Shown: positions 9,439-60,812, numbered from the stretch's first letter. The stretch: 64,000 nucleotides of DNA from Candidatus Cryptobacteroides sp. (GCA_045597605.1 JAZLKN010000042.1:15504-79503); one strand, 5' to 3'. Numbers and translations are program-made. The notes: generated from the letters alone by a model not told the origin.

Positions 9439-9448
9439 TAACCGTTTT

Positions 9449-9524
9449 ATTACGGCAGTACCACCACTTCAGGCGGGCATAACCCATGATCAAAAGCCCC
9501 CTGAAATGGTGGTACTGCCGTAAT
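9449..9524. repeat. Long palindrome, loop-conserved family copy 1
   Basis: Arms 9449-9473 and 9500-9524 (25 bp, 1 mismatch), inner GGGC/GCCC, loop ATAACCCATGATCAAAA. Confidence 0.9.
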
Positions 9525-9536
9525 TATGTGTTTTGC

Positions 9537-9581
9537 GTACTCACTCCCTCACTTCTCCAAGGAAGTAGCCACAACTTCAGG
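9537..9581. repeat. Degenerate REP-like inverted doublet
   Basis: GTACTCACTCC (9537-9547) and GGAAGTAGCCAC (9561-9572) resemble the units at 12099-12209. Confidence 0.6.
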
Positions 9582-9636
9582 AGATTCCGCACAGGAATTA
9601 AACTGTTTTGCCGACTGATTTCGATAAGAGAAGCCA

Positions 9637-10965
9637 TCAATGCCTCATCCGGCGGGCCATCTGCATCATCGCAGCCGGGTTGATTGCCATCTTCATCATC
9701 TTGCGGCTGCTCTCGAACTGCTTGAGAAGCTGATTGACTGCCTGGAGAGACGTTCCTGAACCGTCCGCGATGCGCTTGCGACGGCTGCCGTTGATTATGT
9801 CAGGGTTTTCTCGCTCGTATGGCGTCATTGAAAGAATTATGGCCTCAGTGCTCTTGAAGGCCTTGTCATTATCGATTTCTATGTCCTTGATCGCCTTACC
9901 AACCCCAGGAATCATACCGGCCAAATCCTTTATATTACCCATCTTGCGCACCTGCTGTATCTGATTGTAGAAATCCTGGAGATTGAACTGATCCTTGGCA
10001 ATCTTCTTCTTCATCTCACGGGCCTGTTTCTCGTCAAACTGGGCCTGGGCCTTCTCCACGAGGGAGACGACATCACCCATACCGAGTATTCTGTCGGCCA
10101 TACGTGCCGGATGGAATACATCGAGAGCATCCATTTTCTCTCCAGCGGAAACAAACTTGACAGGTTTTCCCGTAACAGCCTTTATTGACAAGGCGGCGCC
10201 ACCGCGTGTGTCTCCGTCCATTTTTGTCAGAACAACACCCGTAACTGACAATCTCTCATTGAATATTTTTGCTGTTTCTACGGCATCCTGGCCAGTCATC
10301 GCATCAGCAACAAACAGCGTCTCAGTAGGATTTATAGCCTTTGAAAGAGTCTCAATTTCATTCATCAACTCCTCATCAACGCTCAAACGTCCGGCTGTAT
10401 CAACTACGACCACGCTGAATCCGTTTGATTTTGCATAGGTGACGGCGTTCTTTGCTACTTTAACGGGGTCTTTCTCACCTTCCTCACTATAGACGGGAAC
10501 TTCGACACTTTCAGCAAGGACTTTCAACTGATCTATTGCCGCAGGACGGAAGGTGTCACAGGCAGCAAGCACCACCTTCATTCCTTTCTTGCTCTTTATG
10601 TAATTGGCAAGTTTGCTGCTGAGTGTGGTTTTACCGGAACCGTTCAGACCGGCAACCAGAATGATTGCGGGACTGCCTTTCACTTTGAGCTCGCTGGCCT
10701 CGCTTCCCATCAGTGCAGCGAGTTCATCGTGCACAATCTTTATCATCATCTGACCGGGATTAACTGCCGTCAGAACATTGGCTCCCATTGCCTTGGCTTT
10801 TACATCATCGCAGAAACCCTTGGCCACCTTATATGACACGTCGGCATCCAGCAAAGCCCTGCGGACTTCCTTCAAAGTTTCGGCGACGTTGATTTCAGTA
10901 ATCTTTCCCTGGCCCTTCAGTATTTTGAGCGAACGCTCAAGCTTGTCCTGTAAGTTCTCGAACAT
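9637..10965 (-). CDS. ffh: Signal recognition particle protein Ffh
   Basis: MFENLQDKL, GLNGSGKTT, DTAGR, TKMDGDTRGGAALS and M-domain motifs. Confidence 0.98.
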   Translation of the reverse strand: MFENLQDKLERSLKILKGQGKITEINVAETLKEVRRALLDADVSYKVAKGFCDDVKAKAMGANVLTAVNPGQMMIKIVHDELAALMGSEASELKVKGSPAIILVAGLNGSGKTTLSSKLANYIKSKKGMKVVLAACDTFRPAAIDQLKVLAESVEVPVYSEEGEKDPVKVAKNAVTYAKSNGFSVVVVDTAGRLSVDEELMNEIETLSKAINPTETLFVADAMTGQDAVETAKIFNERLSVTGVVLTKMDGDTRGGAALSIKAVTGKPVKFVSAGEKMDALDVFHPARMADRILGMGDVVSLVEKAQAQFDEKQAREMKKKIAKDQFNLQDFYNQIQQVRKMGNIKDLAGMIPGVGKAIKDIEIDNDKAFKSTEAIILSMTPYERENPDIINGSRRKRIADGSGTSLQAVNQLLKQFESSRKMMKMAINPAAMMQMARRMRH

Positions 10966-11190
10966 ATCAATCCGTGTTAAATCCAGTCAAATTTCAAATT
11001 AAGACGCTTCAGCCTTAAATGAAGACGTTCGCAAAGATAGTGTGTTTGTCGGTATAATCAATGAAAACGGTATCGTTTTTCAGAAAAAGTACAGAGTTCA
11101 GGCCAAATGTCATTTTTCGGGGTCTTGAACAGTATTGAATAAACCGCTAAGTTTGCGATTCATAACTGAACCACAAACTGCTTTAGAATT

Positions 11191-12123
11191 ATGAATTACT
11201 TCAATGAAAATGACGATTACGGATGCAATCCTATCCGTTTTTATCACGTATGTACCGATGGGGAGGATAATGGCATTGTGTACACATCTGAAAACGATTA
11301 CAGGCAAGCTGTCACGATAAGCGCAATCTGTGCTTACAAAGCAGATGTCAAAATCGTTTGCTTCTGCCATATGTCAACCCACTCACATTTTGTGATTTGG
11401 AGCGACAGCTACGATAAGGCTGAATGTTTTTCCAATTCATTCAAGCGGGATTATTCAAGGTATTTCGTTCTGAAATATAGGGCAGATCCGGTATATTGCG
11501 GAATTTCGGCAAAACCGATTTTAATTGCTGATCGGTTTTACCTGATGAACTGTATTGCGTATGTACTGAACAACCCGGTTGCCGCAAAGATTACTTCCAG
11601 GGCAGAGGATTACAGGTGGTCATCATTCAATGCATATTTCAACGAATCATCCGACGACAGTGTACCTATCGAACACTTGGGAGTAAGAAATATCCGCAAT
11701 ATTCTTCAAACCAAGACAAAATTGCAAAATTCCGGATTCCGTATCAATACGGACGGCTCGATACATTTAAAGTCGTACATCGATTATGGGATTGTGGAAA
11801 GAATTTATGGTGGCAAGAAAGAATTCTACCGTTCGATGGCGATGACCGACAGCGCCGTCGAAGAGATGAGATATGTTTCGCACGTTGTCCGTTTCACCGA
11901 TACTGAATTGTACGCGGAAGCACTGGAAATAGCACGCCGGAAATACTCCACAAATACCTTGAACCTTCTTACAAAAGAACGGAAGATTGCTCTTGTCATA
12001 CCTTTGCAGCGAAAAACCAAAGCATCTGTCGAAAGGATAGCACGCATTCTCAGAATTAGTCCGAAAGAGGTAAAAAGATATGCAGGATTGATAGAGGATG
12101 TGGCCACTCCTTCAGAAAAGTAA
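11191..12123 (+). mobile_element. HUH/Y1 tyrosine transposase, REP-associated (RAYT/TnpA-REP) type
   Basis: FYHV N-terminal strand, HUH motif CHMSTHSHFVI, catalytic-Tyr motif AYVLNNPVAA, AEDYRWSSF (RAYT-type xEDYxWSS), C-terminal helical extension; about 40-42% GC in sampled lines versus about 50-55% in core genes; own TAAGTTTG promoter; no tnpB nearby. Confidence 0.85.
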
Positions 12124-12209
12124 GGGAGTAGCCACGCAACCGGCCTTATAGCATGTTGTGTTAAGGTGAAGTGTGGCCACTCCATACACAAACCGAGGGA
12201 GTGAGCACA
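12099..12209. repeat. BIME-like array of four alternating inverted REP-like units
   Basis: TGTGGCCACTCC (12099-12110, fwd), GGAGTAGCCAC (12125-12135, rev), GTGTGGCCACTCC (12171-12182, fwd), GGAGTGAGCACA (12198-12209, rev). Confidence 0.85.
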
Positions 12210-12322
12210 TCTGACGAAAGTATCTTTCTTTTTCCGGCAAATATTACTATATTTGTCAGTATTTTACGTGCGAACGTCAGAAAAAATAAGAACTATAAAA
12301 TATAAACTAAAAATATCGCATT

Positions 12323-15300
12323 ATGGCACAAAAGAAATTCATTACCTGCGATGGCAACTGGGCAGCTGCCCACATTGCTTACCTGTTCAGTGAGCATGCT
12401 GCCATCTACCCCATCACCCCTTCATCTACTATGGCTGAAAATGTGGACGAATGGGCTGCCGCAGGTAAAAAGAACCTTTTCGGTGAGGTTGTGAAAGTCA
12501 CCGAGATGCAGAGCGAAGGCGGTGCAGCCGGAGCAGTTCACGGTTCACTTCAGGCCGGTGCTCTCACCACGACCTTCACGGCATCACAGGGACTTCTTCT
12601 GATGATCCCCAATATGTACAAGATTGCCGGTGAACTGCTCCCTACAGTTTTCCACGTATCCGCACGCGCGCTCGCCACACACGCCCTGTCCATCTTCGGT
12701 GACCATCAGGATGTAATGGCCTGCCGTCAGACCGGTTTCGCCTTCCTGGCATCAGCATCCGTACAGGAAGCCCTCGACCTCGCCGCTGTGGCTCATCTGT
12801 CAACCATCAAGAGCAGCATCCCCTTCGTACACTTCTTCGACGGATTCCGCACTTCACACGAGATACAGAAAATCGAGCTCATCGACGAGGACAAGCTGAA
12901 GGAAATGATTTCCGATAAAGCCCTGCAGAACTTCCGCAAGAGAGCATTGAACCCCGATGCGCCCGTTACCCGCGGTACTGCACAGAACGGTGACGTCTAT
13001 TTCCAGAATACCGAGGCCCGCAACAAATACTACAGCGAGGTAGATGATATCGTCGCCCGTTATATGGGTGAGATTTCCGAGCTTACAGGCCGCGACTACC
13101 GTCCTTTCGACTACTACGGCGCACCCGATGCCAAGAAGGTCATCATAGCGATGGGCTCCGTAACGGAGACCGTCAAGGGCGTTGTGGACAAACTCGCAGC
13201 AGAAGGCAAGAAGGTCGGTCTGATGATTGTACGCCTCTACCGTCCTTTCTCTGCTAAGTATTTCTTCAAGGCATTGCCCAAGACTGTCAAGAGAATTGCC
13301 GTCCTGGACCGCTGCAAAGAGCCCGGCGCTCTCGGAGAGCCCCTCTATCTCGACATCAAGGCCCTCTTCCAGGGCGAGGATAAAGCTCCCGTAATAGTAG
13401 GCGGCCGCTACGGTCTGTCCTCAAAGGATACCACTCCTTCACAGATTCTCGCCGTTTATGAGAACCTCGATGCAAAGGAACCCAGGAACAACTTCACCAT
13501 CGGTATCGTGGATGACGTGACTTTCCTGTCACTCCCCCAGAAAGAGGAATTTTCAATCGTTAAGGAAGGCACGACAGAATGCCGTTTCTACGGTCTGGGT
13601 TCAGACGGTACGGTAGGCGCCAACAAGAACACCATCAAGATCATCGGTGACAACACCACACTTTATGCACAGGGTTATTTCGATTACGACTCCAAGAAGT
13701 CAGGCGGATACACCTGCAGCCATCTTCGTTTCGGCAAAGAACCCATCAAGGCTCCTTACCTTGTAAGCACTCCCGACTTTGTGGCCTGCCACGTGCCCTC
13801 ATACCTCAGCAAATATGACGTTCTCGAAGGTATCAAGGAGAACGGTACCCTGCTTCTGAACAGCCTCTGGGACGAAGAAGAGACGCTCAAGCGTATTCCC
13901 GACCACGTAAAGGGCATCATCGGCCGCAAGAACATCAAGCTCTACGTCATCAACGCAACCAAGATTGCAGCTGAGATTGGTCTGGGCGGACGCACCAACA
14001 CCATACTCCAGAGTGCATTCTTCAAGATTACCGGCATAATTCCCTACGAGGAGGCCGTGGGTCATATGAAGCACGCCATCGACAAGAGCTACGGCAAGAA
14101 GGGTGAGAATGTCGTGAAGATGAACTACGCGGCCGTTGACCGCGGCGGAGAGTATATCGAGGTAGCCGTTCCCGCAGAATGGAAGGAAATCACTGCCAAG
14201 TTCGAGATTCCCGGCAAGGAGCGTATGGCTCCCACATTCGTCAAGGAGATTGCCGATGTCTGCAACTCACAGAACGGTAACAAACTGCCCGTCAGCGTAT
14301 TCACAGTGGACGGCACAATGCCTGCCGGTACTGCAGCATACGAGAAACGCGGAATCGCCGTCAAGGTTCCCGCCTGGGACTCTGAGAAATGTATCCAGTG
14401 CAACACCTGCGCCATCGTCTGCCCTCACGCCGTCATACGTCCTTTCCTTCTGAGCGAAGAGCATGCCGCCAAGGCTCCCAAGACCATTATGCTCCTTCCC
14501 GTCAAGGGCGCTCCCGCAGGAAGCGATGCAAAATACTACACTCTCGCCTTCTCCAATGCTGACTGTACCGGTTGCGGCAACTGCGTGGATTACTGCCTCG
14601 CAAAGGAGAAAGCCCTGTCAATGGTTCCCTACGATTCAGAGGACGACAAGGCTCAGAAAGAATACGATTATCTCGACAAGAAAGTCGGCTACACTGCAAT
14701 AGAGGCTGCAAAGGCCAATATGAAGACCTCACAGTTCAACCAGCCCTACTTCGAATTCAGCGGAGCCTGCGCAGGTTGCGGCGAGACTCCTTATATCAAG
14801 GCCATCACCCAGCTCTTCGGTGACAGGATGATGATTTCCAACGCCACAGGATGTTCATCCATCTACGGCGCATCCTATCCCGCATCACCCTACTGCACAA
14901 ATGCAGAAGGTCACGGCCCCGCCTGGCAGAACTCTCTCTTCGAGGATTTCTGCGAATTCGGTCTGGGTATGCACGTAGGTTCAGACCGTGCACGTCAGAC
15001 AGTAGCCAGACTGATGACGCAGGGTCTGGAGTGCGACTGCTGCGGTGACGAAATCAAAGCCCTGTTCAAGCAGTGGCTCGACGCTCCCCAGAATGCGGCT
15101 TCAACCCGTGAGGTTGCCGACAAGCTCGTTCCCCTTATGAAAGAATGCGGCTGCGACATCTGCAGGCAGCTTCTCGACTACGAGCATTTCATTCCTTCAC
15201 GCAGCCAGTGGATTATCGGCGGTGACGGTGCCAGCTATGACATCGGTTACGGCGGACTCGACCACGTACTGGCCAGCGGCGAAAACGTGAACATCCTGGT

Positions 15301-15847
15301 TCTCGACACCGAGGTTTACTCCAACACAGGCGGACAGAGCAGCAAATCGACGCCTGCCGGCGCTATCGCCAAGTTCGCAGCTTCAGGCAAGAAGGTACGC
15401 AAGAAAGACCTTGGAATGATGGCTATGAGCTACGGATACGTCTATGTCGCACAGGTTGCAATGGGAGCATCACAGGTTCAGTTCATCAATGCAATCAAGG
15501 AAGCCGAGGCTTATGACGGTCCTTCAATCATCATAGCCTATGCGCCTTGCATCAACCACGGTCTGAAAGCCGGTATGGGTCTGAGCCAGCGCGAGGAGAA
15601 ACTCGCCGTAGAGTGCGGCTACTGGCAGCTCTACCGCTACAACCCCGCCCTGATTGAAGAAGGCAAGAATCCTTTCACTCTCGACTCCAAGGAGCCCGAC
15701 TGGAGCAAGTTCCAGGACTTCCTCAAAGGTGAGGTGCGTTTCGCATCCCTCTACAAGATGTTCCCCGGACAGGCAGACGAACTCCTTCAGAAGACTGAGG
15801 AATTCGCCAAGATCCGTCTTGAGAACTACAAACGACTTGCGAAATAA
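12323..15847 (+). CDS. nifJ: Pyruvate:ferredoxin (flavodoxin) oxidoreductase
   Basis: AIYPITPSS, EMQSEGGAAG, two CxxCxxCxxxC ferredoxin motifs, FSGACAGCGE, TPP-binding GGDG..YDIG..LDTEVYSNTGGQ. Confidence 0.98.
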   Translation: MAQKKFITCDGNWAAAHIAYLFSEHAAIYPITPSSTMAENVDEWAAAGKKNLFGEVVKVTEMQSEGGAAGAVHGSLQAGALTTTFTASQGLLLMIPNMYKIAGELLPTVFHVSARALATHALSIFGDHQDVMACRQTGFAFLASASVQEALDLAAVAHLSTIKSSIPFVHFFDGFRTSHEIQKIELIDEDKLKEMISDKALQNFRKRALNPDAPVTRGTAQNGDVYFQNTEARNKYYSEVDDIVARYMGEISELTGRDYRPFDYYGAPDAKKVIIAMGSVTETVKGVVDKLAAEGKKVGLMIVRLYRPFSAKYFFKALPKTVKRIAVLDRCKEPGALGEPLYLDIKALFQGEDKAPVIVGGRYGLSSKDTTPSQILAVYENLDAKEPRNNFTIGIVDDVTFLSLPQKEEFSIVKEGTTECRFYGLGSDGTVGANKNTIKIIGDNTTLYAQGYFDYDSKKSGGYTCSHLRFGKEPIKAPYLVSTPDFVACHVPSYLSKYDVLEGIKENGTLLLNSLWDEEETLKRIPDHVKGIIGRKNIKLYVINATKIAAEIGLGGRTNTILQSAFFKITGIIPYEEAVGHMKHAIDKSYGKKGENVVKMNYAAVDRGGEYIEVAVPAEWKEITAKFEIPGKERMAPTFVKEIADVCNSQNGNKLPVSVFTVDGTMPAGTAAYEKRGIAVKVPAWDSEKCIQCNTCAIVCPHAVIRPFLLSEEHAAKAPKTIMLLPVKGAPAGSDAKYYTLAFSNADCTGCGNCVDYCLAKEKALSMVPYDSEDDKAQKEYDYLDKKVGYTAIEAAKANMKTSQFNQPYFEFSGACAGCGETPYIKAITQLFGDRMMISNATGCSSIYGASYPASPYCTNAEGHGPAWQNSLFEDFCEFGLGMHVGSDRARQTVARLMTQGLECDCCGDEIKALFKQWLDAPQNAASTREVADKLVPLMKECGCDICRQLLDYEHFIPSRSQWIIGGDGASYDIGYGGLDHVLASGENVNILVLDTEVYSNTGGQSSKSTPAGAIAKFAASGKKVRKKDLGMMAMSYGYVYVAQVAMGASQVQFINAIKEAEAYDGPSIIIAYAPCINHGLKAGMGLSQREEKLAVECGYWQLYRYNPALIEEGKNPFTLDSKEPDWSKFQDFLKGEVRFASLYKMFPGQADELLQKTEEFAKIRLENYKRLAK

Positions 15848-20157: not shown

Positions 20158-20253
20158 AAACGGGCCATAGCACTTCACGGCACGTTTATCATGGGTTATG
20201 TGCCGTGAAGTGCTATGGCCCGTTTCCTCAATGTCACCGAAGTGGCATAGGCA
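20158..20253. repeat. Long palindrome, loop-conserved family copy 2, plus conserved flank
   Basis: Perfect 26-bp arms 20158-20183 / 20200-20225, loop GTTTATCATGGGTTAT; flank 20226-20253 matches 60732-60759 in reverse complement (24/28). Confidence 0.95.
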
Positions 20254-60716: not shown

Positions 60717-60731
60717 AGTTCGAACCGCAAG

Positions 60732-60812
60732 TGCCTGTGCCACTTCGGGGACGTTGAAGAAACGAGGCATAGCACTTCACGACACGTTTTATCATGGGTT
60801 ATGTGCCGTGAA
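60732..60812. repeat. Long palindrome, loop-conserved family copy 3 (right arm truncated)
   Basis: Flank 60732-60759, left arm 60760-60785 (23/26 identical to the 20158 arm), loop GTTTTATCATGGGTTAT, only 10 nt of right arm (GTGCCGTGAA). Confidence 0.9.

Follow-up and report, generated by a model that had tools for sequence, protein, structure and literature searches.

RAYT-REP is the textbook case of a domesticated transposase that lives with its own repeat population, and it is known mainly from Proteobacteria. Quentin et al. (2018) split the Y1 proteins into subclasses, of which the REPtron-type proteins are short and associated with GT[AG]G REPs, whereas members of subclass 2.1 have C-terminal HTH domains and "no REP-like sequences", and subclass 2.6 in Bacteroidetes is associated with "atypical secondary structures" (PMC6006769). 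Di Nocera et al. (2013) described relatives flanked by terminal inverted repeats as well as repeats that extend over the 3' end of the gene (PMC3733652). A search of the literature on RAYT proteins in Bacteroidales returned nothing specific, and the published surveys give no hairpin partners for long Y1 proteins with C-terminal DNA-binding extensions.

Here, we describe a locus in a stretch of 64,000 nt from Candidatus Cryptobacteroides sp., which we refer to as the window. In this locus, the gene for a Y1 HUH protein, P0001, is followed by a 113-nt module that consists of a hairpin, a 37-nt linker, and a second hairpin (Table 1). We consider it probable that the module is the cognate DNA substrate of the adjoining gene product, in a REPtron-like manner, and that the gene encodes a domesticated, single-copy nuclease of the RAYT-type Y1 HUH family. 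As in the REPtrons of E. coli (YafM, PDB 4er8) and Pseudomonas (RAYT-REPIN), the gene is present in a single copy, is inherited vertically, and is flanked by imperfect palindromes, which are also scattered between other genes. Further similarities are that the stems are conserved and the loops variable, that doublets decay to singlets, that each paralogue has a repeat type of its own, that the best fold match is 4er8, and that the 3' end of the gene runs into the repeat, as it does in the "3'ov" cases (PMC3733652).

The system thus works like a REPtron and differs from it in protein family, repeat design, and copy number. P0001 is a protein of about 310 amino acids, of which about 160 form an extra, helical domain at the C-terminus, and it scores 23 bits against a RAYT cut-off of 80 bits. 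The repeat unit is a hairpin, a conserved 37-nt linker, and a hairpin and lacks a conserved GT[AG]G, its hairpins vary in their relative orientation where REPtrons have 2 strictly inverted REPs, and the copy number is about 1 to 11, compared to tens to hundreds. Placed against the definition of a REPtron, the Y1 HUH core, the single vertically inherited gene, the flanking repeats, and the intergenic dispersal (in low number) were all found here, whereas the curated RAYT and Y1_Tnp thresholds were not reached and the 5' GT[AG]G foot was absent.

The system was also compared to other Y1 systems. The TnpAY1 proteins of subclass 2.1 and the TIRYTs are also long and are extended at the C-terminus by a helical or HTH-like region (PMC6006769, PMC3733652), and like P0001 they are present in few copies, with divergent paralogues in the same genome. 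However, they are reported to be associated with terminal inverted repeats containing GGGGWSAS and with no REP-like hairpins, in contrast to the hairpin doublet described here, in which the arms GGGAGTGA or GGGGAGTG do not fit GGGGWSAS. Moreover, their motif is NH[VYF]H, compared to T-H-S-H in P0001, for which the C-terminal HTH matches were only sub-threshold. Subclass 2.6 belongs to the same phylum and has structures without GT[AG]G and copies elsewhere in the genome (PMC6006769), but its proteins are about 179 amino acids long, carry NH[LIV]H and YIH[QN]NP motifs, and have no long C-terminal domain; this comparison covered the proteins and the published description of the repeats. Finally, IS200/IS605 TnpA proteins and their miniature derivatives share the Y1 HUH chemistry, the imperfect hairpins, and the presence of 2 like hairpins per short element, but the gene studied here is neither multicopy nor located inside the element, and the locus is stable over species divergence.

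Table 1. Features of the locus and of the related repeats. Positions without a prefix refer to the window.
Feature	Position	Strand	Basis or comment
RAYT-like Y1 HUH protein gene, 310 aa (P0001)	11191..12123	+	ORF, motifs, fold
Whole hairpin-linker-hairpin module	12099..12211	+	nhmmer profile of 7 other copies; 73-nt spacing
Hairpin 1	12099..12136	+	5' arm 12100-12110, loop 12111-12124, 3' arm 12125-12135
Linker, 37 nt	12136..12172	+	81% mean pairwise identity among copies
Hairpin 2	12171..12210	+	5' arm 12172-12183, loop 12184-12197, 3' arm 12198-12209
ffh (SRP54)	9637..10965	-	enclosed with the Y1 gene between two modules
Degenerate single hairpin, second-module remnant	9537..9572	.	orthologous to hairpin 2 of the G162 doublet
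Long palindrome, type B	9446..9527	.	occupies the place of left-module hairpin 1 and linker in G162
Second module, intact copies	L060:2430-2539 (G162), L021:159-271, L022:1380-1490, L023:1292-1404		
Seven further doublets in G000	C1:31042, C6:666, C8:456, C15:18611, C19:19895, C26:8277, C47:393		73-nt spacing
Single hairpins in G000	C3; C31; window 9533-9573		profile, E=2e-9; E=1.5e-7; E=0.088 (marginal)
GGGCCCGGAAGGTTCCGAAAAATTTCAGG family copies	G000 C50:11532-11689, C24:7774-8168, C33:11307-11511; L038:1-135 (G162)		

The initial annotation had described an array of 4 inverted units at the end of the gene, and this array was confirmed at 12099 to 12211. The units TGTGGCCACTCC (12099 to 12110), GGAGTAGCCAC (12125 to 12135), GTGTGGCCACTCC (12171 to 12183), and GGAGTGAGCACA (12198 to 12209) lie where they had been placed, with unit 2 starting at 12125 rather than at about 12126 as implied. 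Also as described, unit 1 overlaps the last codons of the ORF: the 5' arm of hairpin 1 codes for the last residues of P0001, and the TAA stop codon (12121 to 12123) is located inside its 14-nt loop. Hairpin 1 has a single C.A mismatch (C12105/A12130) and hairpin 2 has two mismatches that are adjacent to each other. Unit 1 recurs as a direct repeat in unit 3, at a distance of 73 nt (repeat family D1), and GTGGCCACTCC, allowing at most one mismatch, was found at 4 sites in the window compared to 0.82 expected, a number reached by 1 of 100 shuffles.

A stretch of 141 nt folded better than its shuffles, with z = -3.2 as DNA and z = -5.9 as RNA. Its minimum-energy fold was the nested 1-4/2-3 pairing with the inner CCTTA/TAAGG stem of the initial annotation. 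However, the inner stem is specific to this copy and absent from the others, and it was therefore rejected as a conserved feature. An intrinsic terminator, with a short-loop GC-rich hairpin and a T run, was also rejected, since no terminator-like site was found in 12090 to 12230; no T tract follows the module and the loops are 13 to 14 nt long. Downstream of the module, TATATTTG at 12240 to 12260 fits the Bacteroidetes -7 promoter motif for the pyruvate:ferredoxin oxidoreductase (PFOR) gene (12323 to 15847), which would place the module between the stop codon of the Y1 gene and that promoter.

To examine the wider occurrence of the module, we searched the genome of the window, here called G000, which is a draft assembly of 1.80 Mb in 65 contigs with an estimated completeness of 96%. 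A total of 8 doublets, including the window copy, and 3 single hairpins were identified, all of which were intergenic, and the motif therefore has further genomic copies. The window copy is a member of this family: an nhmmer doublet profile built from the seven other G000 copies, with the window copy left out, recovered it with E=4.4e-16 over profile positions 3 to 115, and the 73-nt spacing was common to all 8 doublets. The genes around the copies include those for a GH95 glycosidase, a HipA-like protein, a PAP2 phosphatase, RNase HII, a Fic protein, and others, and the copies are inserted in both orientations relative to the neighbouring genes. The mean pairwise identity was 85% to 94% for the arms and 81% for the linker, but only 43% to 47% for the loops. 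Four of the 8 doublets were located at most about 700 nt from a contig end, and copies may thus be undercounted in the draft assembly.

The copies at C8 and C19 were 100% identical over 113 nt, whereas their left flanks were unrelated and diverged exactly at 5'-GTGTG, which points to one or more recent duplications that ended sharply at the foot of the hairpin. The C3 site contained a single hairpin in G000 and a doublet at the orthologous position in G147, suggesting that singlets arise by deletion between the two hairpins. Furthermore, the C26 site was filled in G000, G162, and G153, as was the C3 site in G000 and G147. Some of the insertions are therefore older than speciation, and with several of them orthologous across species the module is rarely mobile at best. 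No clean empty site was found in G162, G147, or G153 for the C19, C1, and C8 copies, and the sequences flanking the C1 and C8 copies were not located in these genomes.

It was also noted that some of the copies share flanking sequences. Flank X (G000 C6:776-815, C3:5073-5112, C47:503-542, C8:566-590) and flank Y (G000 C8:415-452, C19:20007-20044) were found solely beside doublets and in differing combinations (X-module-Y, Z-module-Y), suggesting that the duplicated unit sometimes exceeds the module or that flanks have been exchanged at the hairpins. In addition, an 871-nt block (L036:1003-1873; G000 C19:19394-20264) was absent at the same site in G153. This block contains an ORF for a membrane protein of 144 amino acids, a doublet, and nested long palindromes, so that the repeats and a small gene appear to come and go together.

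Support for the stems was obtained from an alignment of 25 hairpins from 12 modules. Here, 88% of the stem cells were paired compared to 76% in the shuffles (0 of 500 reached 88%) and to 29% to 59% when the partner columns were slid as a control, and 11 of the 13 stem pairs had changed on both sides. A mismatch recurred at one mid-stem position in these hairpins, and the mismatches were C.A on one strand and G.T on the other. The hairpin feet were GTGG...CCAC in the window and L021 and GTGC or GTGT in the dispersed copies, and only GTG...CAC was conserved across the family. Since the feet vary between copies, a conserved GT[AG]G or GTAG foot was rejected. The GTAG that the initial annotation had likened to the tetranucleotide of classical REPs is a single G-to-A change in unit 2, which creates the C.A mismatch and is not conserved; at this place, L021 has GTGG and the dispersed copies have GTGA.

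The period of 73 nt, with a 36-nt palindromic repeat and a 37-nt spacer, and the strong RNA fold could also indicate an RNA element, such as a small RNA or a 3'-UTR structure, or a degenerate two-repeat CRISPR-like array. We consider this extremely unlikely. No Rfam family matched the module, and the only sub-threshold matches, to miRNA precursors, were to the long palindromes described below. The copies are found in both orientations relative to their neighbours, and the C.A and G.T mismatches show no consistent bias to the sense strand of the gene. The CRISPR-like mini-array was rejected because the 37-nt "spacer" is the same conserved sequence (81%) in all copies and there are never more than two repeats.

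The gene next to the array encodes a protein with an N-terminal nuclease domain (H64-S-H66, Y124), followed by the C-terminal helical domain at residues ~150 to 310 in the AF2/AlphaFold model (pLDDT 86.6). This C-terminal domain may contain a putative HTH, as judged from sub-threshold matches with E-values of 0.02 to 0.07, none of which falls in Bac_DnaA_C, HTH_23, or HTH_28. The HUH motif is T-H-S-H, with Ser rather than a hydrophobic residue at the middle position, and residues H64, H66, Y124, and N128 were invariant in 25 homologues. The topology of the model fits the IS200-like fold, and its best match in the PDB was the REP-bound E. coli RAYT (4er8_A, a complex with the hairpin; E 7.9e-4, TM 0.54 relative to the target), followed by IS608, ISDra2 TnpA, and IS200 transposases. 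A PDB search by sequence profile identified only spurious protein A repeats. P0001 scored 23.0 bits against the RAYT model NF047646 and 13.8 bits against Pfam Y1_Tnp, which is below the cut-offs of 80 and 23 bits, respectively.

At the DNA level, the P0001 gene is single-copy in G000. Its sole other relatives in this genome are the C43 and C50 paralogues, which are 21% to 25% identical to P0001, and no canonical RAYT or IS200 genes were found elsewhere in G000, only the three divergent paralogues. Orthologues in G162 and in the metagenome contigs L021 to L023 were 79% to 95% identical and all located divergently beside ffh, and in total a P0001-type gene adjoins ffh in 5 related genomes or contigs. 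The dN/dS ratios were 0.10 to 0.18, at dS values of up to 0.76, which is indicative of purifying selection. The single copy, the synteny with ffh, and the low dN/dS ratios are the behaviour of a domesticated gene rather than of an insertion sequence, and the invariance of the HUH and Tyr residues under purifying selection implies a role in DNA cutting.

With clusters drawn at 50% identity, a profile search for the wider family retrieved 10,195 of them at E<=1e-3 and 1,913 at E<=1e-10. Nine of 10 sampled members matched the RAYT model with E-values of 1e-6 to 5e-11, all below its cut-off, and 4 of the 10 passed the Pfam Y1_Tnp cut-off. The few deposited relatives of P0001 are named "hypothetical protein" at NCBI. 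A family annotated as hypothetical is here consistently paired with a distinct hairpin-linker-hairpin repeat, which provides a defined substrate for testing the enzymes.

This pairing was seen across the family. Within the genus, the P0001 clade (43% to 95% identity) is present in 8 of 301 genomes, counting G000, and all 7 of the 7 genus members examined had a hairpin-linker-hairpin of their own after or overlapping the stop codon, with lineage-specific stem sequences. The overlap of hairpin 1 with the gene end was also seen in the orthologues in L021 to L024. More distant relatives, down to 21% identity, had their own module after the stop codon as well (L002, L004, L006, L015, L029, and the C43 paralogue). 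An automatic doublet detector, which was kept deliberately simple and undercounts in that it missed clear cases, identified doublets at 9 of 31 homologue loci compared to 1 of 393 control ORFs and 0 of 620 shuffles. The initial reading of the array as a REP/BIME-like element tied to the HUH gene is supported and was largely right.

The number of own-module copies varied among the family members, from 1 in G207 and 2 to 3 in G078 to 2 in G308, with one on each side of the gene, and 11 in G215, where they were clustered on both sides of the gene and also dispersed. In many members, such as G207 and the C43 and C50 paralogues, the gene-adjacent module was the only one, which fits a purely local cis role equally well. 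The module could then be a passive structural repeat that was spread by ordinary recombination or replication slippage and serves as a cis element of the gene, for example as a binding site for the C-terminal domain (autoregulation) or as a 3' stabiliser of the mRNA, with the nuclease uninvolved in its spread. Such an explanation would also account for the old dispersed copies that are orthologous between species, for the X and Y flanks common to some copies, as expected from segmental duplication or gene conversion, and for the strong RNA fold (z = -5.9). We nevertheless regard it as unlikely. The module has no terminator-like T tract, its loops are 13 to 14 nt long, and modules are located on both sides of the gene in G215, G308, G162, and L021 to L023. 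Furthermore, the sequences to the left of the identical C8 and C19 modules differ, with a boundary that falls sharply at the foot of the hairpin, and the invariant catalytic HUH and Tyr residues under purifying selection point to a role in DNA cutting.

The cognate substrate reading is also consistent with the organization of the ffh locus. A second intact module was identified beyond ffh in the sister genome G162 and in contigs L021, L022, and L023, and the flanked unit is therefore module-ffh-gene-module. In the window, this second module is reduced to a degenerate hairpin. The initial annotation had linked the short repeats to cores at 9458, 9565, and 20163, and of these the stretch at 9565 is indeed a true relative, as it corresponds to hairpin 2 of the second module, whereas homology to the long palindromes at 9458 and 20163 was not supported.

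Relative to the genes outside it, the 2.7-kb module-ffh-gene-module cassette is oriented one way in the window and G162 and the opposite way in L021 and L023. These outside genes are those for proteins of 171 and 211 amino acids on one side and the PFOR gene on the other, and L022 agreed with the orientation of L021 and L023 on the side covered by its contig. The inversion breakpoints coincided with the two hairpin modules (window 9446-12211 compared to L021, L022, L023, and L060). The linker next to the gene was inverted as well: it is in the forward direction relative to the family consensus in the window (12136 to 12172) and G162 (28 to 31 of 37 positions), but reversed at the same locus in L021 (2797-2890) and L023 (3934-4020), with 26 to 29 of 37 positions. 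Where the linker was flipped, hairpin 1, which encodes the C-terminus of P0001, had kept its orientation, and both the linker flip and the cassette inversion end in near-palindromic hairpins and may have been made by the enzyme or by ordinary recombination. The string CACTTCAC was restricted to the linker of the window/G162 lineage, and the other copies had CACACCCCACC. The modules can be flagged as breakpoints of inversions in gut Bacteroidales by which essential genes, ffh among them, are reoriented; ffh itself is a resident gene and not part of the mechanism.

A gene enclosed by two modules could also be the remains of an IS200/IS605-type insertion sequence, in which the gene would be the transposase, the module its right end, and the doublets miniature derivatives (palindrome-associated transposable elements). 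A hairpin, a linker, and a hairpin is the expected look of a minimal IS200/IS605 derivative with a left-end and a right-end hairpin, the TnpA proteins of IS608 and ISDra2 are the next-best fold matches, and the gene in G308 is located between two directly oriented modules. A decayed insertion sequence is nevertheless very unlikely in our judgement, given that the gene is single-copy with two other paralogues of only 21% to 25% identity, and that one locus beside ffh has been kept across species at dS values of up to 0.76. In addition, each module is complete and located outside the gene, the essential ffh gene is part of the flanked unit, and there is no tnpB gene.

If the module is the substrate of P0001, as we favour, the hairpins would be extruded on single-stranded DNA, for example on the lagging-strand template, and a protein dimer would bind with one hairpin per subunit. 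Tyr124, with a metal held by His64 and His66, would then cut at or beside the hairpin foot, after which the ends would be rejoined. We infer the binding and cutting of the hairpins by P0001, including the strand and the site, from the features described above. Occasionally, the module would be copied or moved to other intergenic sites, and a deletion between the hairpins of a doublet would later leave a single one. The hairpins, which are nearly palindromic, would also serve as breakpoints at which the 37-nt linker and the 2.7-kb ffh-gene cassette become inverted. A stronger version, in which the Y1-HTH protein uses the modules as live recombination sites and itself drives the inversions of the linker and the cassette, seems quite unlikely to us. 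If true, a large unannotated family would represent an HUH-based genome-rearrangement system in gut Bacteroidales that reorients resident genes.

Doublets of the G000 type were detected in 4 of the 301 genus genomes. In addition to G000, the gene was present in G162, with 3 doublets in an assembly of 84% completeness, two of which flank the ffh-gene cassette and one of which is located at C23:212-324. G147 contained 1 doublet, and no orthologue was found in its 95% complete assembly, which has a different gene beside ffh. G153 also contained 1 doublet and showed no orthologue, in an assembly whose contig ends 322 nt beyond ffh. These numbers fit a dependence of the module counts on the gene, in a comparison of four close kin of which two have incomplete assemblies.

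The long palindromes in the window had been suggested to form one family with the short repeats, which our results do not bear out. The likeness of the 16-mer GTGGCCACACTTCACC to the sequences at 9458, 9565, and 20163 was at chance level: the named sites match at 9 to 10 of 16 positions, and matches at >=10 of 16 positions were found at 167 sites in the window compared to 210 +/- 14 in shuffles. Nor did the doublet profile match any long palindrome, and a sequence link between doublets and long palindromes was therefore rejected. The long palindromes instead constitute a separate and far larger network of about 95 repeat regions in G000, of which type A alone accounts for 46 candidates. Type A candidates were also found in G162 (4) and G147 (1), and in none of the 298 other genus genomes searched. 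The palindromes, types A to D, are located at 20162-20221, 60729-60812, and 9446-9527 in the window and at about 90 other places in G000. A CACTTC[AG]G core and loops of the kind ATAACCCATGATAAAAC are common to them, and the loop of type C often contains a nested type A palindrome, as in G000 C10:40377-40519. Long palindromes were often found beside doublets (C1, C19, C26, and C31), making these loci mosaic in the BIME sense.

The paralogues in G000 are accompanied by repeats of other types. The C43 paralogue is followed by two ATCAGTGC...GCACTGAT hairpins after the stop codon (G000 C43:530-620) and the C50 paralogue by a direct repeat, AGTGCCCGCAGTGGT (G000 C50:12735-12790), neither of which has another copy in the genome. 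Another repeat family contains GGGCCCGGAAGGTTCCGAAAAATTTCAGG and has about 10 to 13 copies of up to about 400 nt. One of these copies is located directly upstream of the C50 Y1 paralogue, and G162 and G153 contain members of the family as well.
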